Below, piece by piece: positions 22,362 through 63,231 of a stretch of 64,000 nt of DNA (position 1 is its first letter; the number at the start of each line of letters is the position of its first letter). The stretch is from the NCBI GenBank assembly GCA_963758525.1, contig CAVWVQ010000003.1, positions 3,104,001-3,168,000 of the forward strand, given 5' to 3'. The DNA is from an uncultured Phycisphaerales bacterium. GTDB lineage: Bacteria > Planctomycetota > Phycisphaerae > Tepidisphaerales > Tepidisphaeraceae. The notes below the pieces were generated by a model. It saw nothing but the letters and a program-made list of their open reading frames with translations. It did not search any database and was not told the DNA's origin. Made by a program: the position numbers and the translations under genes.

Positions 22362-23252
22362 TCAAGCAGTACGGGACGCCCATTTCGCGGGGAGGGATTT
22401 TGCGGCGAAGACGATGCCGAAGAGCAGGCACAGCATCCCGACGACGCAGGCGCCGCTGGAGATGTCTCCCAGTTGCAGGCTCAGCAGAATTCCCGCAAGC
22501 GTTCCGCAAAGTCCCGTCAGCCAGGACAGGAGCAGGGCGGGGCCAAGGCGTTTGCTGACGAGCAGGGCGGTTGCGCCGGGAATGACGAGCATCGCCGAGA
22601 CGAGTACGAAGCCGGCCAGGCGGATGGTCAGGACAATGGTGACAGCCAGCGCGAGCAGCAGCAGGTAATGTACCAGCGTGGTGCGAACGCCGTAGACCCG
22701 GCTCACTTCTTCGTCGAAGCAGAAGAAGACGATTTCCTTGAAGAACAGCGCCAGCACCGCCAGCAGCACTGCGGTCACGACGACGGCCAGGATCATGTCG
22801 GACCGTCCGATGGAGACCAGTGATCCAAAGAGGAGGTCTTCAAGGTTAGGCGGGGCTTGAGGGCGTCCGAGCCAGTGAACATACCAGGCGGCGCCCTGCA
22901 CGTTTCGACGGAGATCGCTCATGAAGATGCCCCACGCCATCGCGGCCACGAGGACGATGCCGATCGCGCTGTCCGGCTCCAGTTGCCGCCGGCGGGTGAG
23001 CACCCCGATCCCGGCGGCCATCGCGAGGCAGAACGCCAGCACCAGCAGATACTGGTTGAATCCGACCATGCCAAGGAAGACCGCCGTTCCAATGCCCCCA
23101 AAGCCGGCATGACTCAGCCCTTCGCCGATAAATGCCATGCGCTTCAGCACGACGACGACCGAGAGGAGCGAGCAGAGCGTGGCGATCGCCGCGCCGGCGA
23201 TCATTGCGTGGCGGGCGAACTCGTGTTCGATGATCCAGTGGAAGGCTTGCAT
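22362..23252 (-). CDS. znuB: Zn/Mn ABC transporter permease
   Basis: VVLKRMAFIGEGLSHAGFGG, DSAIG, LFGSL and LVSAMLVIPGATA. Confidence 0.9.
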   Translation of the reverse strand: MQAFHWIIEHEFARHAMIAGAAIATLCSLLSVVVVLKRMAFIGEGLSHAGFGGIGTAVFLGMVGFNQYLLVLAFCLAMAAGIGVLTRRRQLEPDSAIGIVLVAAMAWGIFMSDLRRNVQGAAWYVHWLGRPQAPPNLEDLLFGSLVSIGRSDMILAVVVTAVLLAVLALFFKEIVFFCFDEEVSRVYGVRTTLVHYLLLLALAVTIVLTIRLAGFVLVSAMLVIPGATALLVSKRLGPALLLSWLTGLCGTLAGILLSLQLGDISSGACVVGMLCLLFGIVFAAKSLPAKWASRTA

Positions 23253-23256
23253 GTTA

Positions 23257-23365
23257 GGGGAAGGCACGAAGGCACGAAGGCACGGAGGCACGAAGGGAAG
23301 GAAGGGGAAGCTCGGGGAAGGCACGAAGGCACGAAGGCACGGAGGCACGAAGGGAAGGAAGGGGA
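23257..23365. repeat. GGCACGAA octamer array duplicated with a 57-bp period
   Basis: ggggaaggcacgaaggcacgaaggcacggaggcacgaagggaaggaagggga at 23257 and 23314. Related units at 20067-20095. Confidence 0.9.
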
Positions 23366-23510
23366 GGTGGCGTTGGAAACGAGGGTCTTCCGTCGGTTCG
23401 CAATTGGTGATTTGCGGGATTATTTGCAGTCTGCAATTCGCTGTCGCGAATTGGCGTGCCGCCGGGTGTCGAGGGGGACCGATCTAGCAGTATTGCGGCG
23501 TTGGCAATAT

Positions 23511-24377
23511 TCATTTCCGGTCCCCGCTGGCGGGCTCGGAGCCCAGCACGGCGTCGTATCCATGTTGGAAGACGGCTCTCAATACTTGCGGCGTGAGACC
23601 CTGCGGCGCGTCGTGATAGTGTATGGTTTTGCGGAGACACGCGATGCGCGTGCAGCCGGCGGCGAGGGCTTCGATGTCGTGACTGACGACGATGACTGTG
23701 AGCTTGAGCGATTGATGCAATTCTCGGATCAGCGAACCGATTTCGCGCTGGCCGGGGGCGTCGATCCCGGACATGGGCTCATCGAGGATGACGATTTGCG
23801 GCCGGGCGACCAGCGCGCGAGCGATGAAGATCCGCTGCTGCTGACCGCCGGAGAGCTCGCCGATGGGCGCATCGGCGAGATGCGCGACTCCAACGCGTTG
23901 CATCATCATTTCCGCGTACTGGAGGTCCGCCGGGGCGTGGCGTCGAAAAAGGCCGGTTTTTCCGACGAGGCCGAGGCGGACGACTTGTCTTGCCGTCAGG
24001 GGGAATCGCCATTCGGCACTGTTGCGTTGGGGAACATAGCCGACGATATCGCCGCGCCGGCACGCTTGCGCCGGGGAGAGGCCCGCGACAGTGACGGTTC
24101 CGCTGTAGCCGTTGAGGAGGCCGAGCATGATCCGAAGCAGCGTTGTCTTTCCCGCCCCGTTGGGACCGATGATGCCCAGATTCATGCCCGACTCGACATT
24201 GAGGCTCACATCTTCCAAAACATTGATCGATTTCCCCGCGCCAGCGCCGCGGCCGCGATAACTGAAGCCAACGTGCTCGACGCGGATCGCGTCGTTGGCG
24301 GAGCGCAGCGGTTCGGCCGCGCCGCAATGGTCGTGATCCGCGTGGCCGCAGGAGGTTGTTGCGACAGCGTCATTCAT
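23511..24377 (-). CDS. znuC: Zn/Mn ABC transporter ATP-binding protein with a His/Cys-rich N-terminus
   Basis: CGHADHDHC, GPNGAGKTT, GYVPQ, LSGGQQQR, LDEP and VSHD. Confidence 0.9.
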   Translation of the reverse strand: MNDAVATTSCGHADHDHCGAAEPLRSANDAIRVEHVGFSYRGRGAGAGKSINVLEDVSLNVESGMNLGIIGPNGAGKTTLLRIMLGLLNGYSGTVTVAGLSPAQACRRGDIVGYVPQRNSAEWRFPLTARQVVRLGLVGKTGLFRRHAPADLQYAEMMMQRVGVAHLADAPIGELSGGQQQRIFIARALVARPQIVILDEPMSGIDAPGQREIGSLIRELHQSLKLTVIVVSHDIEALAAGCTRIACLRKTIHYHDAPQGLTPQVLRAVFQHGYDAVLGSEPASGDRK

Positions 24378-25263
24378 GGCTTGGGCGATTGCCCTTCCGC
24401 CAGCACATTTACATCCGATTTGAGCATCGCCTGATAGCTGTCGTAGCCGGGAATCGACGGGCCGCCAAGGTCGTCCAGCGACAGCACGCGCACCCCCGAC
24501 TCCTCGCGCAGCATATCGGTGGCGCGCGGCGGATATTGCGGCTCGGCATAGATCACGCGCAGGTGGTACCGCCGGATCGCGTCCAGCGCCTCGACAAGGT
24601 CTTTGGGCGAGACTTCGCCGCCCGGCGCAAGCTCGATTTCCGTCAGATGCGCCACCGCGCCAGGCCGTATCGCGTTGCCAGCGGGTCATACGCGTTGTGA
24701 TACGAGACAAACTCCTTCACGGGAACGGCCGTGAGCTGCCGGCGGAACGCTTCGTCCATTTTATCAAGATCATGCTGGAGCGTTTGCGCCCGTGCCGCAA
24801 TGTCGGCCGAATGGGCCGGGTACTGCTGCGCCAGCGCCTCGGCCAGCACTCCGACAAAATCCTTCGTGTATGCCGGGTCCATCCACAGATGCGGATTGCG
24901 GCCCATGGCTCGCGTCACTTCCGCCGGCGTCGAGCCGGCCATGCGGATGACCCGCAGGTCTTTGCGCGCCACCTGCTGCGCCGCGCGATCCGCCCAGCCG
25001 TCGAGATTCAGGCCGACTTCGACCAGCAGATCGGCCCTGCTCAGGGGCTCCATCTGCGCCGGCTGCGGTTCAAAATCGTGAGGACTGCTGCCGGGCGGCA
25101 TCAGTAATTCGACGTTGGCCCAGTCGCCCGTCAGTTGGCCGACGATGCTCTGCAGCGGAAAGATCGTCGCCACGATGACGGGGCGTGTGTCGGATTTGGC
25201 TACCGTGTCGCGCCCGCAGCCCGCCAAAAGACCTGGGGCGAAGATAAAGAAAAAGAACACCAT
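24374..25263 (-). CDS. znuA: Zn/Mn ABC transporter substrate-binding lipoprotein (frameshift near 24652; start uncertain)
   Basis: LLAGC lipobox, SPHDFEP, NPHLWMDP, YHNAY and IYAEPQ. The frame is open upstream to an ATG at 25548. Confidence 0.88.
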
Positions 25264-25319
25264 CGACGCGAATTTGCGCAGTCTCGCGATCCGGAACCGC
25301 GCGCCGAGAAGCCGCAACC

Positions 25320-25535
25320 AAATCACCCTCACCCCAACCCTCTCCCGGCGTACCGGGAGAGGGGGCCGGACGCTGGCGAATGATAGGGGTGCGTCAGGAT
25401 TCTTCCCGTCGTTGTCTCGCAATCGCGGGAACCGCGGCGGGATGAATTCCGCCCTACGTGAGATCAACCTGCGGCTCAGCGTACGGCCCACTCGTGCGAT
25501 CCCATTCCTGAACCCTGAACCCTGTACCTTGAACC
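25320..25535. repeat. Cluster of three repeat types: palindrome 25320-25365, GTAG REP about 25436-25458, CCTGAAC heptamers 25507-25536
   Basis: Matches to 5657-5702 and 49429-49486, plus the visible tandem cctgaaccctgaaccctgtaccttgaaccct. Confidence 0.8.
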
Positions 25536-25547
25536 CTCCTTCCGGCA

Positions 25548-25985
25548 TCACGCGCACCTCGGACACAATCCGTGCAGCAGCACTTCGGGAAATTTCACGT
25601 GATAATCCCGGCGGACGTGCAGCGACTTCACGAACGAGTCGGGAATCGGCGCGTCCTCCAGGCACTCGACCGTGCCGCATTCGTCGCAGACAAAATGCGG
25701 ATGACGATGTGCCGCGCGCGGCTGCGGCGCGCCCAGGGCATAGCTCCAGGAGCGGTCCTTGGCGCGGATGCGGTGGATCAACTGCAACTCAGTGAAGGTG
25801 TTCAGCGTGCGATAGACGGTGACGGTGTCTGTCGCATCGGGGAGAAGCTGGAGCATTTGCGGCGCAGTCAGCGGCTGGGTGCTTTGCTCCAGCAGCTTCA
25901 GCAGCGCCAGCCGCACCGGCGTCCGCCGCAGCTTTGCACTTTGCAGCAACTGATCGATCGAGGGTTTGGAGTGAGCTGAATCCAT
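25548..25985 (-). CDS. zur: Fur-family transcriptional regulator, probably Zur
   Basis: LRRTPVR, TVTVYRTL, HRHPHFVCDECG and CPRC. Directly upstream of znuACB. Confidence 0.8.
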   Translation of the reverse strand: MDSAHSKPSIDQLLQSAKLRRTPVRLALLKLLEQSTQPLTAPQMLQLLPDATDTVTVYRTLNTFTELQLIHRIRAKDRSWSYALGAPQPRAAHRHPHFVCDECGTVECLEDAPIPDSFVKSLHVRRDYHVKFPEVLLHGLCPRCA

Positions 25986-26001
25986 GGGTTGTTCCAAAGC
26001 A

Positions 26002-27369
26002 TCAGCCGGTGACCAGATTCGTCGCGACCGGTGTGCGGTAGGCTTTGAGGGCCGGCACGAGCCCGGCGATCAGCGCGACGACAATTACGGCGATCAGATA
26101 CACCCATTCGTACTTGTCGACGTGGATCCAGTTGATCCCTTCCCCGATGTACTCATTGAGATAAAACGAGCCGACCCCCGCCAGCAGATGTCCCGCAAGC
26201 AAGCCGAGCAATCCGCCCGCGATGCCGATGATGCTCGACTCCAGGCAGATCAGCAGCAGCACCTTGCCGCGCGTCGCGCCCAGGGCGCGGAGAATCGCGA
26301 TTTCGCGCAGCCGCGCGGAGACCGAGTTGTAGATGCTCACAAGAATTCCCACCGCCGCGACCACCGTCACCAGCAGTGCGATGATCAGAAGGACCAGCGT
26401 CGGTCCCTGCAGGAACGTGCTGAAGAATTCGCGCATCACGCTGGCGGGGTTGACCGCCATCGCTTCATTCCCGTTGTTGATGGTGTACATCAACTGTTCG
26501 GCGGTGAATCCGCTGCGCGCTTTGATGAGAATCGCGGACACCTCCCACATTTCCTGCGGGACCAGCAGCTTGAACGTTTTGTCGGGATTCATGACATAGA
26601 CCGGAATCTCATCCGCGTCGATGTTCTGCGGCGGGGGCGGCAAATGGTTCTGGATATACCATTGCGATTTGAGCCCCACCGCGTGCTCCGCGATCGTGTA
26701 GAGGCTCTTGAACGGAATGAAGACGACGCGATCGTTGGCGGTATGGGTCGGCTTGAGGATGCCGACAACCGTCCACACCTCGGGGTGAATATCAGGCGTC
26801 TCGCCCGGACGGGGCATCCCGTGCGTCGCCTGAAACGTCGATCCGATGTGCAGGCTGGTGAGCTTTGCGAGCTCGGACCCGATGACGGCTTCGAATTTCT
26901 CCGGACCAAAAACGTGGCCGTCCTGCAGTTCATAACGCCTGCCCGGGCGGTATTCCATCACTTTGTCCGCTTCCAGCGGGTTGCCATCGTCGTCGACTCC
27001 GAACAACTTTGTCGACGTTCCCACGATGCGAAACTTCCCCTGATAGGTGTCTCCGACCACATATGGAATCGCGATTCGCACATCGGCGTGATACTTGCGA
27101 AGCATGTCTCCGTACAACGAATACGGAATGTTCCCCGGGCTCTTGTCCATGTGATAGACGGTATTGAGGACGAGTTGTGTCCCCGAACCCTGCTTTCCGA
27201 CGATCACTTCGTAGCCGTAATCAGTCTGCCCGAAGAGCGCGCCGGCCTGGCCGCGGAGGATGATGATAGATGTTGCCAGGGCCACGCCGAGCGTGACGGA
27301 CAGGAGCGTGAGCCAGGTGGAGAGGGCTCGCTGCCGCATGTTTTTCAGGACGAGTTGGAAGGGGTTCAT
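26002..27369 (-). CDS. FtsX/MacB-like ABC permease (ZrgC/PA4065-like)
   Basis: N-terminal TM, GSGTQLVLNTVYH, large periplasmic domain with HG motif, REIAILRALGA and PALKAY. Confidence 0.88.
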   Translation of the reverse strand: MNPFQLVLKNMRQRALSTWLTLLSVTLGVALATSIIILRGQAGALFGQTDYGYEVIVGKQGSGTQLVLNTVYHMDKSPGNIPYSLYGDMLRKYHADVRIAIPYVVGDTYQGKFRIVGTSTKLFGVDDDGNPLEADKVMEYRPGRRYELQDGHVFGPEKFEAVIGSELAKLTSLHIGSTFQATHGMPRPGETPDIHPEVWTVVGILKPTHTANDRVVFIPFKSLYTIAEHAVGLKSQWYIQNHLPPPPQNIDADEIPVYVMNPDKTFKLLVPQEMWEVSAILIKARSGFTAEQLMYTINNGNEAMAVNPASVMREFFSTFLQGPTLVLLIIALLVTVVAAVGILVSIYNSVSARLREIAILRALGATRGKVLLLICLESSIIGIAGGLLGLLAGHLLAGVGSFYLNEYIGEGINWIHVDKYEWVYLIAVIVVALIAGLVPALKAYRTPVATNLVTG

Positions 27370-27452
27370 ACGGGAATCTCAAATCTCAAATTTCAAATCT
27401 CAAATTTCAAATACGGGAATCTCAAATCTCAAATTTCAAATGTCAAATGTCA
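27368..27452. repeat. AAATCTC/AAATTTC heptamer tandem array with a 43-bp duplication
   Basis: atacgggaatctcaaatctcaaatttcaaat at 27368 and 27411. An AT-rich patch in GC-rich DNA. Confidence 0.9.
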
Positions 27453-27470
27453 TATATCGCAGATTCCGCC

Positions 27471-28232
27471 TCATGGAGTCGACTGCACCGTGGCCTCGAC
27501 CGGGCCGGCGGCACGGTTGATTTCCGAAAGCGTCAGCGTGCGCTGAAGCTGTCTGGCGATGTTCAGATCGTGCGTCACCAGCAGAAGCGTCGCCTTGATT
27601 TCCGTGCAGAGCCTGCGAATCAGATCGAGAACCTGCTGGGCGTTGCGGGAATCCAGTGCGCCGGTCGGCTCATCCGCCAGCACCAGCCCGGGTCGATTGG
27701 CCAGGGCCCGCGCGACTGCCACCCGCTGCTGCTGGCCGACGGAAAGCTTTTGCGGCCGATAATGCAGCCGATCTGCAAGACCCACTTCGCCCAGCAGATG
27801 CCGGGCCCATTGCGGGTCGTGCGCCCTGCCCGTGAAGCTCATTCCCAGCAGCACATTTTCCAGTGCCGTGAATCCCGGCAGAAGGTGATGCGTCTGAAAG
27901 ATGTAGCCGATGTAGCTGCCGCGAAACACATCGCGCTTTGCCTCGGGGAGGTCCGAGAGGTTCACGCGCGAATCCCCGCCGGAGGAGTAGCTCAAGTGGC
28001 GGTTGCTCGCGGCGCCGGGGGCTGTTTCAGAGCCGAATAAAATCTGCCCGCTGTCGGCGGCAAGAATTCCCGCGATCAAGTGCAACAGAGTCGTCTTGCC
28101 CGAGCCGCTGGTGCCGATCAGGGCCACTTGTTCCCCGTCGCCGAGGGAGAGATGGGGGATATCGATCACGGGAACGACCGTGCCGTCGGGCCCGACGTAG
28201 TTTTTGATCAGTTTGAGAATCTCAATCGCCAT
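27471..28232 (-). CDS. LolD/MacB-like ABC ATP-binding protein (ZrgB-like)
   Basis: [39 protein letters not shown] and VTHD. Confidence 0.92.
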
Positions 28233-28263
28233 TTCAGGATGCTCCCGCCCCCGCCGATGCCGG

Positions 28264-28303
28264 ATGATAGGTTTGAAAGAATGGGAATGCAAGCGAGTTG
28301 CAT
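28264..28303 (-). promoter_or_regulatory. Sigma-70 promoter overlapped by a palindromic operator ATGCAA-N5-TTGCAT (28287-28303)
   Basis: Minus strand reads TTGCAT-17 nt-TATCAT. The palindrome covers the -35. Confidence 0.7.
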
Positions 28304-49606: not shown

Positions 49607-49649
49607 AAATGCAATTAAATTGCATTTGCTAATGAGTTGCGTATATATT
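49607..49649 (+). promoter_or_regulatory. Palindromic operator AAATGCAATTAAATTGCATTT over a putative -35, plus a degenerate second copy
   Basis: 21-bp near-perfect palindrome at 49607-49627, TGCTA-N5-TTGCG at 49627-49641, and TTGCAT-18 nt-TATATT. Confidence 0.7.
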
Positions 49650-50901
49650 CGCCGCGTTGGCAGAGGCAGGAAGCTGGACATGGCGAATATGTATTACACG
49701 TTCCTGCTGCGATTCAGCCAGTCGGCGCTGGATGCCTCGCTCACGTTGGTCATGGGCGTGATTGTGGCTGGGATCATTCGCCGAATGGTGGGTCCGGTGG
49801 CGACTCGCCGGTTGTTTGGGAGCGGGTGGACCGGCTCACTGCGCGGATGGGGGGCGGGCATGCTTCTGCCGGTTTGCTCGCTGGGTGTGATTCCGGTGGC
49901 TCGCGAATTGAGACGATCGGGCGTCCCGGGCGGAACCGTGCTGGCGTTCGTGCTGACGGGGCCACTCCTCAATCCAATCTCATTCCTCTATGGGCTGACT
50001 CTCGGCGAGCCACGGGTCATCCTCACCTTCGCAGGGATCACCCTGGCAGAGACCGCCGTGGTGGCCTATTTGTGGGATGCATGGTTCGGGGGCTCCGCGG
50101 ACAAGGCGAAAGCAGTGGAACGGGCGCGGATCGCCGACGCCTTGCCGATGCCCGCCGTCGGTGCGAGGCGAATCCTCTCGGTGCTGGTGACCGCATCCCG
50201 TGAATTGTCCGGCGCGACATTTTTTACTACCTGATCGGTCTTCTGGGCAATGCGATCCTGTCGTCGTTCATTCCTTTCGCGGCGCTTCAGAAAACGATGG
50301 GCCATCATGACATGAAGGCGCCGTTGGAAATGGTGTTTCTTTCGATTCCCGCTTACATCTCACCGCTCTCGGGCATGGTGCGGATCGGGTCGATGTTCGA
50401 GCACGGCAATTCCATTGGGGCGGCGTTCGTGTTGCTCGTGCTGGGGATTGGAATGTGCCTGGGCACGCTGTTGTGGATGCTCAATGACTTTGGCCGAAAG
50501 ATTATCCCCTGGTTCGGAATTTACGTTTTGATTGTGCTGGGGCTTGCCTATGCCTGTGAACCACTGCTTTGGGATTCGCGAAAAGTTGAAGTGGACCACA
50601 CGCACAGCTTCGACGATCTCTCCAGCCCGTTCTACAGCAACCGGGATTCAACGCCAGAAAAGATGCGCGCCCTGGTGCGGATCAAGCTTCGCGAGAAGTT
50701 CCAGCCGTCCGAACAATTGGCTCTGACGTGCCTGTTTGCTCTGCTGGCAAGCGGCATCGTGCTGCGAGCCGTCGACCCGGCCGACAAGATCGAAACATGG
50801 CTGACCGCTCGTCCCAAGGCAGGCAGGCGGGGCAGGCGCGACCCGGTCTTGTCGGGAACAGCGCTCGGCGGCGCGGCCATCAGCGGTCTGGTCGCATTTA
50901 G

Positions 50902-52940
50902 CCCAAGTTACGCATCGAATCCCTTGACGATTTAAATTTCCGGGTGGCGACCGTCGCTGTGCGCCGCCGATGCGCTCGGAATGATCCGCACGTAAAATAC
51001 GTGTGTAGTGAAAAAGAGCACTGCTTGAACTCCACCGAAAACGCGGTATTTCTTGTCGCGTCGGCAAAGGAGTCGCCATGTTTCTTCGCAGGATCCGACC
51101 ACGGGGCAAGGGACGCCGCCAGGAGTACTGGGTGCTGCTGGAGAGCTGTCGCACCGCCAGGGGGTCGCGGCACCGGGTGGTTGCTTATCTCGGTAAGCTG
51201 TCGGCCAGGGAAGTCAGTGGATGGCAGAAGCTTGCCGGGCGGGTGGAGGGCAGGGCACTCCCGGGGCCGGGACTGTTTGATCCGCCGATCGACGAGAGCT
51301 TTGACGAGGTTGCCTGCGTCGAATTGAAGAACATCCGCCTGCAGAATGTTCGGGAGTTCGGGCAGGTCTATCTCGCGTGGGTATTGTGGCGGATGCTCGG
51401 GCTGGACCGGCTGCTCCGCGGCCTGATGCCGCGCGGGCTGGAAGAGGTGCCGTGGAGCGTGACGGCGTCGATCCTCTGTATCGCAAGATTCTGTTATCCC
51501 TCCAGCGAGCTGTACATCGAGCGGCACTTTTATCCCAAGTCGGCCTTGGCCGATCTGCTGGACGTGACGGCGGCGCAGGTGCAGACCGACCGGCTCTACC
51601 GGGGACTGGATCATCTGCTCAAGCAGAAGAAGGCGGTCGAGCAACACCTGCGGCAACGCATGGGACAGCTGTTCGATCTCTCGTTCGACATCCTGCTGTA
51701 CGATCTGACCAGCACATACTTCGAGGGTTCTTGTGCCGCCAATCCGATGGCCAGGCGGGGCTACTCGCGTGACAGCCGGCCCGACTGCCCGCAGGTGGTG
51801 ATCGCCCTGATCGTCACGACCGATGGGTATCCGCTGGGCTACGAGGTGTTCGACGGGAACACCGCCGATTCCACCACCGTGCAGCAGGTCGTGGAAAAGG
51901 TCGAGAGCGAGCACGGCAAATCGCAGCGGATCTGGGTGATGGACCGGGGCAACGTCTCGCAGGCCAATCTCTCGTTCATCCGCGAGCGCGGCGGCCAGTA
52001 CATCGTCGGCACGCCCAAGGCGATGCTGCGGCAGGTGCAGGGCGAACTCGGCGCAGAGGGTTGGAAGCAGGTGCGTGAGGGAATCGCGGTGAAGGTCGTG
52101 CGCTGCGAGGATTCAGACAAGGTCGATGCCAGCGAGACGCTGGTGCTCTGCCGCAGCGAAGATCGGGTGAACAAGGAATCAGCGATGCTCGACCGCTTCA
52201 TCAAACGCATGGAAGAAGCACTGACGGCGATGAGCAAGTCGGCTGCCAGCGGCCGGCTCAAGGATGCATCGGCCGCTCACGAGCGACTGGGTCGCCTGCG
52301 GGAAAAGAACTGGCGGGCGGGCGCCTGCTTCGACGTGAAGATCGCCGAGAGCGACGGCAAGCTCTCGATCACCTGGACCCGCGACGAGCAGGCGAAGCGC
52401 GACCTGTGCGGCTGCTATCTGCTCCGCACGAACATGCCGCAAGCCGACCCGGTCCAACTGTGGCAGCAGTACATTCAACTGGTTGATGCCGAGTGGGCGT
52501 TTCGAATTACCAAAGACGAATTGGAACTGCGTCCGATCTGGCATCAACACCAAGAACGCGTGCAGGCCCACATCCTGGTCTGCTTCATCGCCTACGCGAT
52601 GTGGAAGACGCTGGGCGGCTGGATGAAGGCCAGCGGCCTGGGTGATTCGCCGCGCGAACTGTTGGAAGAGATGGCCGCCGTGAAGAGCGGCGACGTGCTG
52701 CTCACGACGCGCACCGCCGACGGCTCGGCCGGACAAAGCCTGTTGATCCGATGCGTCACTCAGCCCGACGAGCACACGGCGGTGCTGCTCAACCGGCTGG
52801 GCATTGAACTGCCGAATCATCTGCGGCGTGAACGGCTTGAACTCCCGGCGTCCGTCGCCGAAGTCTGCGCGATGTAGTGAAAAAAAGTGTTCGAAAACCG
52901 CCGTCGCATTTCAAAAACGCGGTTTACTGCGTAACTTGGG
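50902..52940 (+). mobile_element. IS1634-family insertion sequence (2039 bp)
   Basis: 13-bp perfect terminal IRs CCCAAGTTACGCA / TGCGTAACTTGGG, flanked by TTAG at 50898-50901 and 52941-52944. Confidence 0.92.
51078..52877 (+). CDS. IS1634-family DDE transposase
   Basis: LYDLTSTYFEG, GYSRDSRPDCPQV, FDGNTAD, WVMDRG, AEWAFRITK, LRPIWHQ and RVQAHILVCF. Confidence 0.93.
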   Translation: MFLRRIRPRGKGRRQEYWVLLESCRTARGSRHRVVAYLGKLSAREVSGWQKLAGRVEGRALPGPGLFDPPIDESFDEVACVELKNIRLQNVREFGQVYLAWVLWRMLGLDRLLRGLMPRGLEEVPWSVTASILCIARFCYPSSELYIERHFYPKSALADLLDVTAAQVQTDRLYRGLDHLLKQKKAVEQHLRQRMGQLFDLSFDILLYDLTSTYFEGSCAANPMARRGYSRDSRPDCPQVVIALIVTTDGYPLGYEVFDGNTADSTTVQQVVEKVESEHGKSQRIWVMDRGNVSQANLSFIRERGGQYIVGTPKAMLRQVQGELGAEGWKQVREGIAVKVVRCEDSDKVDASETLVLCRSEDRVNKESAMLDRFIKRMEEALTAMSKSAASGRLKDASAAHERLGRLREKNWRAGACFDVKIAESDGKLSITWTRDEQAKRDLCGCYLLRTNMPQADPVQLWQQYIQLVDAEWAFRITKDELELRPIWHQHQERVQAHILVCFIAYAMWKTLGGWMKASGLGDSPRELLEEMAAVKSGDVLLTTRTADGSAGQSLLIRCVTQPDEHTAVLLNRLGIELPNHLRRERLELPASVAEVCAM

Positions 52941-57846: not shown

Positions 57847-57880
57847 TGCAATTGACTTTCATCTGCGCCCCGCGCATTCT
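57847..57880 (+). promoter_or_regulatory. Degenerate TGCAA-N5-TTTCA operator over a sigma-70 promoter (probably leaderless transcript)
   Basis: TGCAATTGACTTTCA at 57847-57861, TTGACT-17 nt-CATTCT, with ATG 8 nt after the -10. Confidence 0.55.
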
Positions 57881-57888
57881 AGTGCGAA

Positions 57889-58239
57889 ATGTTCCGCCGC
57901 TGTGTTTCCCTTACCTTGCTGCTTTGCTTCCTTGCAATGGGAAGTGGCTTTGCGCTGTACCTGCACGAGCAGGCGCATGCGCGCGAGGACGCCGCCATTG
58001 CTGCCGCCGCCAAGGCGGCGGGGCTGCCGCCGCCGGAACCGTGCGATCACGACGACAACAACTGCCCGATTCACGCCCAGCTTCACATGCTGATGGTGAG
58101 CGGCACCGTCCTTCCGATTCTTCTTCTGCTGGGGCTCGCGGCTGCATTTCTCACCGAACTGCCGCCGCAGGCTCCTACGAGTCACGTTCCGCTGGTGGCT
58201 GACTGCCGCGGGCCGCCTTACGTGACTCTCCCCCACTAA
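57889..58239 (+). CDS. DUF2946-like His-rich leader protein with C-terminal RGPP
   Basis: N-terminal hydrophobic helix, LHEQAH, CDHDDNNCPIHAQLH, hydrophobic/Pro-rich spacer and DCRGPP. Directly upstream of a TBDR. Confidence 0.78.
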   Translation: MFRRCVSLTLLLCFLAMGSGFALYLHEQAHAREDAAIAAAAKAAGLPPPEPCDHDDNNCPIHAQLHMLMVSGTVLPILLLLGLAAAFLTELPPQAPTSHVPLVADCRGPPYVTLPH

Positions 58240-58434
58240 ATGAACGTGCGCGAGTACGCGCCAGTGCGGATCGCTCTCTGCCTTTGAGGCAGCTGCAAAC
58301 GAACATCCGCAGCACGTGATTGCTCACGTCGTTTAGTTGTAATTTCTTGGAAAGACATTTCCCCACTTTGTTTTGTCGTCCGGGACGGCCAGCCGTCAAA
58401 TTCGGCGCCGCCCGGGCACGAATGGAGACCGGTC

Positions 58435-60653
58435 ATGCGGGAAGAGAATCGATTGCGATCGCGCCGTTGTGCGCGAATGGGCTTTATGTTTATTTTTGTG
58501 ACATCCTGGGCGATGGGGCAAACGGGAACGGCCGAGGCGCCGTCCGCGCCGCCGACGCCGACAATCAGTCCTTCTACTCAGCCGTCCGTCTCCGCGGCGC
58601 AGCAGAGCGCCGCGAGCGGCGAAGGAACTGCACCGCGCCAGCTTGGCAAGGTGGTGGTCACATCTGATCTGGATATCGCACGCGAGCAGATCGCTCCGAG
58701 CCTCGGAGCGACGACCTACAACATCACTCCCGCGCAGATTCAGTCCATCCCCGGCGGCGAGAATGCCTCTTTCAAAGAGGTGCTGTTGCGAGCGCCGGGA
58801 GTCGTGGAGGATTCCTTCGGGCAGGAACACGTTCGCGGTGAGCACGCGAATCTGACCTATCGAGTCAATGGGGTGCTGCTTCCCGAGCCGGTCAGCGGAT
58901 TCGGGCAGGAGCTCGACACTCGTCTCATCGACAACCTGACGCTTATCACCGGCGCTCTCCCTGCCCAATTCGGATTTCACACCGCTGGCATCGTGGATGT
59001 CACCACCAAGTCTGGCGACACGCTGAATCACAATGAACTGTCACTCTATGGCGGGAGCAATGACACGATTCAGCCCTCGCTGCAGGTTGGAGGGACCTCG
59101 GGAAGACTCGATTACTTCATCACCACTTCCTACAACCACAATGGAATCGGCATCGAAAACCCGACGGGCACGCATCATCCGAGCCACGACTACACGGATC
59201 AGGAACGCGGCTTCGGTTACTTCTCCTACCGCATCGACGATACAAGCCGGGTGAGTCTGCTGGCCAACGCCTCCTACGCTGATTTTCAGATTCCCACCAG
59301 TGCGGGCGTGGCGCCTGCTTTCAACTTGAACGGCGTTACAACCGCCAATTCCTCGAAGGTAGATGAAAACCAGAATGAGCAGGAATACTACACCGTTGTC
59401 TCATATCAAAAGACCACCGGTGAGGCGTCGCTCCAATTGTCGGCCTTCAGCCGTTATGGACAAATCACGTTCAGCCCGGATCCCACGCGCGACCTTATTT
59501 TTCAAGGCGTCTCCAGCGCGGTCTATAACAATTTCGCAACAACCGGCCTGCAGTTTGACGGCTCGTATATCGTCAATGATCAGCATACGCTGCGAACCGG
59601 ATTCATCACCGACTTCACTGAGGAAAGACTCGACTCGGTAACCGGGGTGTTTCAAGTTGACAACGCCGGCGCGCAGGCGTCGATCGCGCCAACCGATATC
59701 TACGAAAATACGTCAAACCGCGCTTGGGAGTCGGGCATCTACTTGCAGGACGAATGGCGCCTTACGCAAAAACTGACCTTGAATTATGGGCTGCGGTACG
59801 ACCGCTTTGATTCGAATTTTGACACCGAAGACCAGGTCAGCCCGCGCGCGAACCTTGTGTATAAGATTGATGACGCGACGACAGCGCATATCGGCTACTC
59901 GCGTTATTTTGTTCCGCCGCCGATCCAGAATGTTGATATCGCTTCAGTTCAGCGCTTTAACGGAACCACCAACGCGGCGGGCGTCCAGCTCGCCGACCCG
60001 CCCAAGGTCGAGCGGTCCAACTACTTCGATGCTGGAATCTCGCATCAATTCACGCCGGCTTTCCAGATGACGCTCGATGGATTTTACAAGCAGTCGCACA
60101 ACCTGGTGGACCTCGGCCAGTTTGGAGCCGCGATCATCGAAACCCCATTCAACTACCGCACCGGAAAAGTCTATGGCGGCGAGTTGAGCGGCACCTATCG
60201 GCAGGGGGGCTTTTCAGCCTTCGCCAATTTCTCATACGTGGAGACCGCGGCGCACAATATTGATTCGCAGGAATTTCAGATCGATCCGGACGAGTTTGCT
60301 TATATCAAGACGCACGATATTCACCTCGACCATGAAGCCGAATTGTCCGGGGCGTTCGGGGTGGCGTACCAATGGAAGAACGATCGGGTGTATCTGGACT
60401 TGCTGGCTGCAAGCGGCCTGCGCAGCGGTTTTGCCAACACCGAAAGTCTCGGCTCCCACTATCCGGTCAACGTGGGGTACGAGCACATCTTTCGTCCGAA
60501 CGGTCCCAACGGCAACCCGTTGAGGTTCCGTTGCGACATCGTCAACATCTTCGACGAAAAGTACGAATTGCGCGACGGCAGCGGGATCGGTGTCGGCGCC
60601 CCCAATACGGCCCGCGAATCGGCTTTTTCGCCGGGGTGGCTTATGAATTCTGA
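58435..60653 (+). CDS. TonB-dependent receptor (frameshift near 60600; true C-terminus ...GVAYEF)
   Basis: Signal peptide, KVVVT TonB box, APGV and HVRG plug motifs, YLQDEW, NYGLRYD, SPR, NIFD and a terminal Phe in the shifted frame. Confidence 0.93.
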
Positions 60654-60665
60654 TGGAGGTGCATA

Positions 60666-61385
60666 TTGAGCGCGCCATCCATGCAGAGCGATTCCACGGA
60701 AATTGCACTCGTGCCCGTGGGGACGGCTGCGCTATGGATGATGTGCCTTGCGGTGGGAACCATCGGCTTGCTGATTCCCTATCCCCTTCCCCGCGCACCG
60801 TTGAAGGAACTGGCCCCGGTCCAGGCGCAGCTGATGCACGTTCAACTGATGAACGATGCATCGCTGCCGCCGGAGGTCGGGCCGCCAGTTCCGGATGAAC
60901 TGCCGGCGCCACCCCCGCCTCCCGCGGAAAATATCACTGCGCCGGCGGCGCCGCCGTTGGTTGCGGTGGCAGTTCCAAACCCGGCGATTGTCATGGCGCG
61001 ACCGATCCAAGGACCAACAACGATCGTCGAACCCAGGCACGCAACCCCTCCGCACTCGCCGGTTGCGGCAACCGGCCCTTCCATACCGGCAACTCCCAGG
61101 GCGCCTGCCCGTCCGACGCATTTAACCTTCGGCGAGGGTGATGGAAATCAACCAGCGCCTGAGTATCCGCGTGAGGCCAGGTTGGCCAGGCAGCAGGGCA
61201 CCGTGCTCATTCAATTTACAGTCGGTGAAGACGGACGCGTCCAATCCGCCAGGGCAGTCGTCCCCAGCCCGTTCCCGTTGCTGAATCAGGCGGCTCTCCG
61301 AGCCGTTCGCGAAGACTGGCGTTTTTCGGCCGGAGCGGTCCGGACCTTTGAAGTCTCCATTCAATTTGAACTCAAGCAGCATTGA
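60666..61385 (+). CDS. tonB: TonB family energy transducer
   Basis: N-terminal TM, Pro-rich linker, PEYPREAR...QQGTV...FTVGEDGRV. Confidence 0.88.
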
Positions 61386-61402
61386 GTCGGGCCTCGTTGT
61401 CT

Positions 61403-62137
61403 ATGGAACCTATTCTCGCAAACATCGTCGTGGACTATTTTCTGCAGGGCGGGCCGATTATGTGGCCGCTCCTGCTGGCCCTGCTGGCGGCAATCGTCGT
61501 CGTTCTTGAGCGTTCCATCTGGTGGTGGATGCTCCGCCTTCGCACGCGCAGCAATCCCCTGCGTCTCAGTTTCGAGGCGATTGCCGCCGGCGAATTCGAC
61601 GCGGCGCTGGCGCTGACGGACCGGCCGAGCGATCCCTTCCTCACTACCGTTCACCAGGGTTTGCTGCACGCGCACAGCTCGCTCCTGGGAGCCATGCAAA
61701 TGCGGGCGTCGGAGGAACTCGAATGCGGAGAACGACGGCAATGGATCCTGGGAACGCTGATCACGCTTTCCCCATTGCTCGGATTGCTCGGCACCATCAC
61801 AGGAATCATGCGGTCGTTCAGCTTCGTCGGCAACGAACAGCTCGAAGCGACGAAAGTGAGCGGGGGAATTGCCGAAGCGCTGATCGCCACCGCCTGCGGG
61901 CTGGGCATCGCTATTCTGTGTTTGATTCCTTACAACTTCTTCAACCGGAAGCTTACGCAGTTCCGGTCCCGTCTGGAGCGGACGATCAATCACGTGGAGT
62001 TGCTTGCCGCGTCGGCGAAGCATCACGGTCACGATTTGGAGGAGTTTGCGCGGGAGCGCGAAATCGCTGGACGTCAGGTGGATACGGACGACAAGCCGCA
62101 GCGGGTGATTGGTGATGGGAACGTGAAGAAATGGTGA
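61403..62137 (+). CDS. exbB: MotA/TolQ/ExbB proton channel protein
   Basis: [23 protein letters not shown] and [14 protein letters not shown]. Confidence 0.92.
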
Positions 62138-62338: not shown

Positions 62339-62776
62339 ATGCCCATCAAACTTGATTCAAAACTTCCCTCGGACAACGCCGAGGCGCGCATCGAGATCGT
62401 GCCGTTGATCGACATCATGTTCTTTTTATTGGCGTCGTTCATGCTCGTCAGCCTGAGCATGGTCAACATGAAGAGCGTCAAAGTGGATCTGCCGACGGCA
62501 ACAACTTCGAGCGTCGATCTGAAGAAGGATTTTGTTGACATCTCCGTCGACAAGAGCGGCGCTGCGTTTCTGGACAAAAAGCCGATGGCGGGCAATGAGC
62601 TGATGGCGGCGCTCGCCCAACTGGCGCGGGAGAATCCGAAGCTGCGCGTCTTCATCAGCGGTGACCGTGACACGCGCAACGGCGACATGATTCACGTGCT
62701 CGACCTGGTGCGGCAGGCGGGGATCGACAAGGTGGCTTTCGAGGTCAAAGCGAGCGATCGCGCCGGTGCACCATGA
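62339..62776 (+). CDS. exbD: ExbD/TolR biopolymer transport protein
   Basis: IEIVPLIDIMFFLLASFM, VDLP and ISGD...VLDLVRQAGI. Confidence 0.93.
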   Translation: MPIKLDSKLPSDNAEARIEIVPLIDIMFFLLASFMLVSLSMVNMKSVKVDLPTATTSSVDLKKDFVDISVDKSGAAFLDKKPMAGNELMAALAQLARENPKLRVFISGDRDTRNGDMIHVLDLVRQAGIDKVAFEVKASDRAGAP

Positions 62777-63231
62777 ATCGCGTCCTCCAATGGTTCAATT
62801 TTGTGGGTGTGCTCGCGCTGACGGGCCTCTGCGTCGTGCAGTGGAAGGTAAACCGCCAGTTGAACCTGGCAGCCGCGCAGTTGGAACGGCTGCACCTGGC
62901 GGACGAAGCGAAGACCGCCAGGGACTCAAAGACGATCAGCGAACAGGCGTCCGATCTGGAGGAATTTCGCGAACGCGTTCGTCTTTGCGAAGTGGCATTG
63001 GCCGATAGCGAGAAGCAGTTGCAAACGGCGCAATCCGAGCGGGATCGACTCAACGCTTCGGTGGATCAGCTCAAGGCATCCCTCGCTCAATGGACGGCGG
63101 CGGTCGCGCAGCGCGACGCGGCCATCAAGCAGGCAGCCGCCCAAATTCAAAAATTGGCGGACGATCGCAACGAGGCGGTGCGGAGATTCAATGATCTGGC
63201 GGAGAAGTACAACGCCCTTGCGAAGAAGTAA
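62773..63231 (+). CDS. Membrane-anchored coiled-coil protein
   Basis: ATGA overlap with exbD, N-terminal TM (FNFVGVLALTGLCVVQW), then heptad-rich helix. Confidence 0.75.
   Translation: MNRVLQWFNFVGVLALTGLCVVQWKVNRQLNLAAAQLERLHLADEAKTARDSKTISEQASDLEEFRERVRLCEVALADSEKQLQTAQSERDRLNASVDQLKASLAQWTAAVAQRDAAIKQAAAQIQKLADDRNEAVRRFNDLAEKYNALAKK

Follow-up and report, generated by a model that had tools for sequence, protein, structure and literature searches.

A predicted ribosome-arrest leader with an anti-Shine–Dalgarno tail ahead of a TonB-dependent receptor operon in Tepidisphaeraceae

We examined a 64,000-nucleotide stretch of DNA from an uncultured Phycisphaerales bacterium of the family Tepidisphaeraceae (contig CAVWVQ010000003.1, positions 3,104,001 to 3,168,000 of the forward strand; hereafter the window, whose own coordinates are used throughout). 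The subject is a DUF2946-related leader open reading frame (ORF) of 116 residues with two hydrophobic helices (57889..58239, + strand), the first gene of an operon that continues with a TonB-dependent receptor (TBDR), tonB, exbB and exbD. Six residues from its stop, the leader carries RGPP (58207..58218, +), predicted from its sequence and from the RGPP/RAPP arrest literature to be an arrest site. The sequence CGTGACTCTCC (58221..58231, +), composed of leader-tail codons, begins 2 nt beyond the last proline codon of RGPP. The predicted fold and the pairing tests below mark it as an anti-Shine–Dalgarno (anti-SD) arm, whose partner is the SD (GGAGA) and start codon of the TBDR (GGAGA-ccg-GTCATG, 58424..58437, +; ATG at 58435). 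Leader and TBDR are 195 nt apart, and the intergenic region is predicted to be folded (58235..58422, +), with hairpins at 58235-58337, 58349-58362 and 58372-58422 that would draw the anti-SD arm and its partner close to each other. The positions of ORF, RGPP, anti-SD, SD and ATG in a preliminary description of this DNA all hold.

What kind of protein does the leader encode? It contains LHEQAH and CDHDDNNCPIHAQLH, and its cysteine motif, 44 residues before RGPP, is CPIH, that is CxxH and not CxxC. The predicted model has three helices, at residues 2-18, 21-43 and 60-89. The hydrophobic N-terminal helix is present in both sequence and model; the preliminary description had reported this membrane helix alone, and there are two hydrophobic helices, not one. 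The second, which in the window subtype lies 18-41 residues ahead of RGPP, is missing from the CxxC subtype. In an alignment of 35 leaders, H26, H30, C59 and R-x-P-P are invariant (35/35), position 62 is cysteine in 23 and histidine in 12, and C52, the first cysteine of CDHDDNNC, is not kept. From this alignment a metal site is predicted at H26, H30, H54, C59, H62 and H66 (57964..58086, +).

The window leader has no Pfam match, PF11162 (DUF2946) included, and its only NCBIfam match is LpqS (E 0.04). PF11162 is matched at E ≤ 1 by 24 of the 35 aligned leaders (best 1.7e-7) and is carried by 16 of the 96 leader homologs found in a profile search. R[AG]PP ends 92 of these 96, and the distance from cysteine to arginine is 48-50 (44-46 intervening residues) in all 91 homologs where it can be measured, with 44 intervening residues in the window leader. 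A pattern scan of the 6.47-Mb genome returned 102 frames ending in R[AG]PP, only one of which, the window leader, passed a filter for Cys/His and hydrophobicity; two weak hidden Markov model matches, candidates for a second leader in the same genome, proved to be wrong-frame ORFs. At L059 (G058) the leader has a tandem tail, RGPP followed 8 residues on by RDPP; the alignment took the second motif and the pairing test the first. Because the window leader reaches neither the Pfam cut-off nor CxxC, and shares the motif, the spacing and the position, we place it, judging from sequence, in a DUF2946-related branch outside strict PF11162 membership.

Of 141 family genomes 38 were found to have the TBDR itself, and of 400 others sampled from the phylum one; its closest homologs are assigned to Tepidisphaeraceae and Phycisphaerales. 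A leader stands ahead of it in 34 of the 37 family genomes with upstream DNA (two are frameshifted and one ends in RAPI), and three of the 37 have the TBDR without a leader. The preliminary description had proposed a CruR/CutF-like arrest leader with kinship to DUF2946, and the conserved R[AG]PP, cysteine-to-arginine spacing and operon position support such a leader, the PF11162 matches among its homologs supporting the kinship. L153 (G627) holds a TBDR 60% identical to that of the window, others in the same Caulobacteraceae-centred search reaching at most 51%; it is either a transfer or a mis-binned contig.

How might the leader act on the gene behind it? The pairing described earlier, of 11 nt with the SD and ATG, is confirmed from the sequence as a helix of 11 bp with one G-U pair and a 3-nt bulge. 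In the minimum-energy fold of 58190-58460 it is the closing helix (z -3.76; none of 200 shuffles as good), and 10 of its 11 pairs have probabilities of 0.95-1.0 in folds that start at 58215. Of the 1536 synonymous ways to encode the YVTLPH tail, 40 pair equally well, this stretch having been picked after the helix had been seen. The helix is the consensus fold of six close homologs, in which the inner hairpin of the intergenic region is also conserved. Covariation, which the preliminary description had looked to, is weak evidence here because both sides change in only 2 of 10 pairs and the six-homolog alignment contains a register error. As for an intrinsic terminator, the intergenic region has only weak sites, at chance level.

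Is the helix peculiar to this locus, or is it a property of the family? We calculated, for each distinct locus, the duplex energy of the RNA at RGPP with its own TBDR start and with swapped partners, the starts being chosen by eye. In a first run of 44 loci the cognate value was -13.7 and the swapped value -11.3 kcal/mol (0/20000 permutations). After the start of L053 had been moved, a better SD and pairing having been seen, and two loci had been added, the 46 loci gave -13.7 and -11.1 kcal/mol (z -7.0; 0/5000 permutations). The leader of L025 is spurious and was excluded from the pairing tests. Measured from the end of RGPP, the cognate signal is maximal at offsets between -18 and 0 nt, where z is -4.8 to -7.0; further downstream it is flat. 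When each of 28 clusters at 60% identity is represented by a single locus (200 draws), z is -4.3 to -5.0, with the window and G004 loci removed it is -6.7, and with coding or intergenic windows as control targets it is -1.1 and -0.9. With a footprint of 22 nt in place, the ribosome-binding site (RBS) becomes cheaper to open by at least 2 kcal/mol in 23 of 45 loci (median 2.0; control blocks, mean 0.6). Seven proteobacterial loci, of which two had been seen earlier in the analysis and one (L182) has a spurious leader that was retained, give z -2.8 at offset -6 and no comparable signal at other offsets. We conclude that the anti-SD design belongs to the family as a whole but ranges from strong to weak between loci, being moderate at that of the window; family-wide, the cognate pairing peaks where the preliminary description had put it, under the stall footprint. 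A second, lesser peak in the 46 loci (z about -3), possibly chance among 33 overlapping windows, lies some 90 nt before RGPP ends.

These results suggest a mechanism. A ribosome would stall at RGPP, with Pro-Pro in its P and A sites, and would cover about 58207-58228, most of the anti-SD arm. The SD and ATG of the TBDR, 195 nt downstream, would then be freed. Metal would bind H26/H30/C59/H62, which at 44 residues from RGPP would have just emerged from the exit tunnel, and would fold or pull the nascent chain so that the stall is released, whereupon the ribosome would terminate and the helix close over SD and ATG. A Fur-family repressor at the -35 box would be an added transcriptional brake in this genome. 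Leaving the metal aside, we regard a stall-operated translational switch as likely. That the RGPP leader is an arrest peptide which restricts TBDR translation to a short supply of some divalent metal, probably zinc, has in our judgement an even chance. The fullest form of the proposal, a zinc-sensing arrest peptide that does Zur's job at translation by way of a long-range anti-SD helix and is interchangeable across genomes with a Zur or Zur-like repressor ahead of a single family of zinc-scavenging TonB receptors, is tentative, and we give it somewhat less than even weight.

What is the nature of the box at the promoter? The predicted promoter (57852..57880, +, from promoter comparison) has a -35 element TTGACT (57852-57857), a spacer of 17 nt and a -10 element CATTCT (57875-57880). 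Its -35 hexamer is overlapped by the putative Fur-family operator TGCAATTGACTTTCA (57847..57861, unstranded), one mismatch from TGCAA-N5-TTGCA. Since only 8 nt separate the end of the -10 element from the leader ATG, the leader mRNA is probably leaderless; in 15 of 39 leader promoters the -35/-10 elements end 4-9 nt ahead of the start codon, which in such promoters is often TTG or GTG. A stock sigma-70 scan found no site at the leader promoter. Within one mismatch, TGCAA-N5-TTGCA occurs in 5 of the 39 promoters (shuffles, mean 0.25, maximum 2), a spacer of 5 being favoured, and on these grounds a mere -35 look-alike is rejected. Twelve relatives have 18 exact sites of the 17-nt form as against 3 for the reversed control; five of the 18 stand before leaders or genes for binding proteins of AztC/MntC type, and the majority of the others before unrelated genes, including five in one genome in which the search did not find the regulator.

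A matrix ranked the leader box third in the 6.47-Mb genome, behind two exact boxes, that of an ArsP/SO_0444-type metal permease (49610..49624, unstranded) and that heading the ABC-fur-znu operon (28288..28302, unstranded); it was built from 11 sites of other genomes picked by motif likeness, mostly in homologous promoters, which favours this rank. The three best sites all fall within 30 kb (22362-28302, - strand; 49610-50935, + strand; 57847). Three exact copies in a genome of this base composition are, by estimate, about the number expected, so the case for the box rests on place and co-occurrence. Among 11 genomes with a window-type Fur-family gene 9 have the box ahead of the TBDR, as does 1 of 26 where the gene was not found (Fisher p 4e-6; kin are not independent, the genomes are incomplete and G004 is among the 26). 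All three leaderless TBDR orthologs have the exact Fur-type box. We read it as a real Fur-family operator, as the preliminary description had supposed. The two-tier control supposed along with it stands as a minority state, box and regulator being found together in just 6 of the 34 leader-bearing family genomes. The third exact dyad, at G000:C3:4436010, marks the start of a cyclophilin-like gene and has a low matrix rank; the ArsP-type permease gene carries a DDE transposase insertion at its end (51078-52877).

Which protein would bind this operator? Co-occurrence, library scans and alignments point to the Fur-family gene at 25551..25997 (- strand), whose product is likely the binder. It belongs to an operon of ABC ATPase, permease, fur and znuA/C/B-like genes (22362-28232, -). 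The protein has a Fur fold and two CxxC motifs and adjoins znuABC-type genes; its sensory region has His and Glu only, and it falls below the NCBIfam Zur cut-off. Nur (Ni site His70/His72/His126) is not among its 12 PDB matches. A gene of the window type is found in 31 of 61 family genomes; it adjoins the TBDR locus in G136 and G052, and most of 23 family loci lack a conserved set of genes around it. This genome has one more Fur-family gene, for which iron Fur is the best-scoring assignment.

If the leader senses a metal, which one is it? The preliminary description had taken CxxH as the sign of a non-copper switch. That argument fails: leaders with CxxC (23/35) and with CxxH (12/35) stand ahead of orthologous TBDRs, so CxxH is not a marker of metal choice. 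The non-copper metal itself is still favoured, as zinc, by the neighbours of the TBDR and by Zur sites. TBDR homologs at 40-44% identity occur in 19 plasmid records, in 7 of which the gene neighbourhoods were examined. In Paraburkholderia sprentiae the homolog lies downstream of zinc ABC, ZigA (above cut-off) and Zur-like genes; in Polymorphobacter it lies upstream of two Zur-like genes, an ABC permease homologous to that of the window and DUF3299; and in Methylocystis AztC-like and Zur-like genes are near it. In Bradyrhizobium a DUF2946 leader that passes PF11162 precedes the homologous TBDR with the same anti-SD fold. Three of the 7 records have no metal genes near the TBDR homolog. DUF3299 corresponds to ZrgE, part of a Zur-regulated operon (PMC9817125), and a DUF3299 gene stands immediately upstream of the leader in G068. 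This genome has three tandem DUF3299-like genes (L152:6202-8089; G000 C3, about 2.557 Mb), off the ABC operon and without a box.

The upstream DNA of 50 proteobacterial loci was also compared, 4 more having been dropped as too short. At 18 of them TGTTA-N5-TAACA is found within one mismatch, the form of validated Caulobacter Zur sites, and three of these are within 2 mismatches of the Caulobacter znuL site (PMC4176598). A leader is present in 5-7 of the 50, and in none of the 18 with a Zur site. We infer that one receptor family may be under the control of Zur, of a Fur-family repressor or of a leader; such alternative controls would imply a single signal, most likely zinc.

Several observations weigh against this reading. 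At the window locus the helix has a probability of about 0.2 when folding starts at 58190 and of 0 when more of the leader is folded. That blocking the arm would matter was foreseen in the preliminary description, and the helix does close the minimum-energy fold; with the footprint blocked, however, opening the RBS takes just 2.0 kcal/mol less, since the SD pairs anew with nearby RNA. Just 12 of 46 loci beat their own shuffles individually, and under the footprint RBS opening worsens in 12 of 45. Neither leader nor Zur site is found at 25-27 of the 50 proteobacterial loci, and the mutual exclusion of the two is weak (p 0.04; 0.15 under a strict leader rule). The regulator retains the equivalent of His77 and has no cysteine at the aligned place of C88, the sensory Cys of Escherichia coli Zur (PMC6103462). 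The box is identical to the nickel Nur box, tTGCaa-N5-ttGCAA (PMC2691836). The genome encodes rho, the route used by CruR. A look-up of sequencing runs listed none.

Might the same stall and anti-SD switch answer to nickel, cobalt, manganese or copper? The Nur box and the His/Glu sensory region without the Zur Cys would fit, as would a NiFe hydrogenase encoded in the genome, box-led binding proteins that score equally as AztC and MntC, the CxxC retained by most aligned homologs, and the copper sensed by both characterised relatives, CruR (PMC9426467) and CutF (PMC9973294). However, annotation-free clustering found no recurrent copper chaperone, PepSY or nickel transporter family near 32 loci, HupE/UreJ was not found in the genome, the hydrogenase locus is outside the top 32 box sites, and it is zinc markers that recur around the TBDR family; we consider another metal unlikely. 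Rho bears on a different possibility, that once the stall is released the main effect is Rho-dependent transcription termination, as in CruR with its 162-nt intergenic region (PMC9426467), pairing being secondary. That about half of the loci lack a convincing helix would fit. Yet the peak of cognate-specific pairing coincides exactly with the footprint, and the RNA between the two genes has a strong fold; we judge this route quite unlikely.

A leader of this design could instead sense export, membrane insertion or thiol oxidation, in the manner of SecM and MifM, and not a metal. Two hydrophobic helices in the window subtype, the second so close to RGPP, would suit such a role, and RAPP-like motifs are also found ahead of sec genes (PMC12992588). 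Against it are the invariance of H26, H30 and C59 and the absence of the second helix from the CxxC subtype, besides the metal-uptake genes downstream and the Fur-type box at leaderless orthologs; its probability is slightly lower again. Very improbable, finally, is an ordinary small membrane metal-binding protein with pairing by chance. Pyrimidine-rich stretches pair with any SD, and the helix probability here varies with the limits of the fold; against chance stand the cognate-versus-swapped result with its positional peak and the avoidance of RGPP by proteomes outside such leaders (PMC12992588).

The receptor (58435..60669, +) belongs, by library scans and alignments, to a His-rich TBDR family without a name, in which certain His residues are invariant. 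No NCBIfam TBDR model reaches its cut-off for it. Solved TBDRs among the matches listed, with CrtA, OprC and ZnuD considered, have at most 17% identity and none stands out, so no close solved relative among them indicates a substrate. Behind it follow TonB (60666..61385, +; PF03544), ExbB (61382..62137, +; PF01618), ExbD (62339..62776, +; PF02472) and, at the end of the operon, a membrane-anchored coiled-coil protein (62773..63231, +) conserved in most full-length homologous operons. The TBDR frame is broken near its 3' end at a run of C (60599-60603), and further frameshifts occur in the genes of a MoxR ATPase (about 57650), a ZnuA-like protein (about 24650), a P1B ATPase (about 21870) and the ArsP permease (about 50230). 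Since broken TBDRs are restricted to genomes of 10 or fewer contigs, the frameshifts in the window are probably assembly errors.

How does the leader compare with known systems? CruR of Bordetella pertussis (Bp2923, DUF2946/PF11162), before crtA/bfrG (PMC9426467, PMC12914433), likewise heads a TBDR operon, and shares an N-terminal hydrophobic segment, a C-terminal RAPP-like motif and a long intergenic region; its Cys motif lies 45 residues before that motif, here 44 (PMC9426467). The polarity is also common to both, the importer being expected on when the ribosome is stalled. The leader differs in its CxxH and invariant HxxxH, its second hydrophobic helix and the lack of a PF11162 match; in an anti-SD helix where CruR has Rho termination (PMC9426467); in a Fur-type box that the cruR promoter lacks (PMC12914433); and in a zinc-type context with tonB-exbBD, where the CruR operon has a PepSY gene instead. 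CutF, before cutO in Rhodobacter capsulatus (PMC9973294; 10.1101/2025.02.05.636593), is likewise a Cys/His leader with a proline-rich tail, exported as the window leader may also be, and stalling on it is predicted, as here, to unfold a stem in which the following SD is sequestered. However, CutF has CxxxC, copper-induced stalling and a detoxifying target, whereas the window has a CxxH leader and an importer, with neither CxxxC nor a downstream multicopper oxidase. The stem here spans 195 nt; passages of PMC9973294 expected such unfolding for short intergenic regions only. They also suggest non-copper variants for His-only CutF-like clusters. In polarity the leader thus resembles CruR and in its predicted RNA mechanism CutF, without being a strict member of either group.

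Passages of PMC12992588 (Fujiwara et al.) report that RGPP and RAPP arrest ribosomes, Pro-Pro occupying the P and A sites when CruR stalls in vitro. They describe RGPP/RAPP upstream ORFs (uORFs) ahead of TonB receptors as universal in Gram-negative bacteria. Like the window leader these are small, with the motif near the C-terminus and a TBDR downstream, and they are exported, as the window leader may be; neither a metal nor a downstream mechanism is given for this class in the same passages. The receptors ZnuK/L/M of Caulobacter crescentus (PMC4176598) share their type of Zur site with proteobacterial homologs of the window TBDR, and ZrgABCDE (PMC9817125) shares ABC permease and DUF3299 neighbours with its relatives; both are controlled at transcription, where the leader is predicted to act on translation. 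Nur of Streptomyces coelicolor (PMC2691836), of the Fur family, has the same box; it differs in that the regulon here resembles zinc uptake.

The kind of leader is thus already published in CruR, CutF and the RGPP uORFs. In the literature searched, which left out most subscription papers, neither a zinc-sensing arrest peptide nor this leader family came up, and copper is the only metal shown for metal-sensing arrest peptides in the literature found. New here are the anti-SD control predicted for a TBDR and the leader's apparent role as a stand-in for a metal repressor. How RGPP leaders control their TonB receptor targets is left open in PMC12992588. The family offers a concrete mechanism, in which the stalled ribosome would sit on an anti-SD, and points to a specific metal other than copper. 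Both are testable, and a cultured Bradyrhizobium has a locus with the same layout. For the Planctomycetota, the analysis defines an operator and a small putative regulon for a subfamily of Fur-family regulators.

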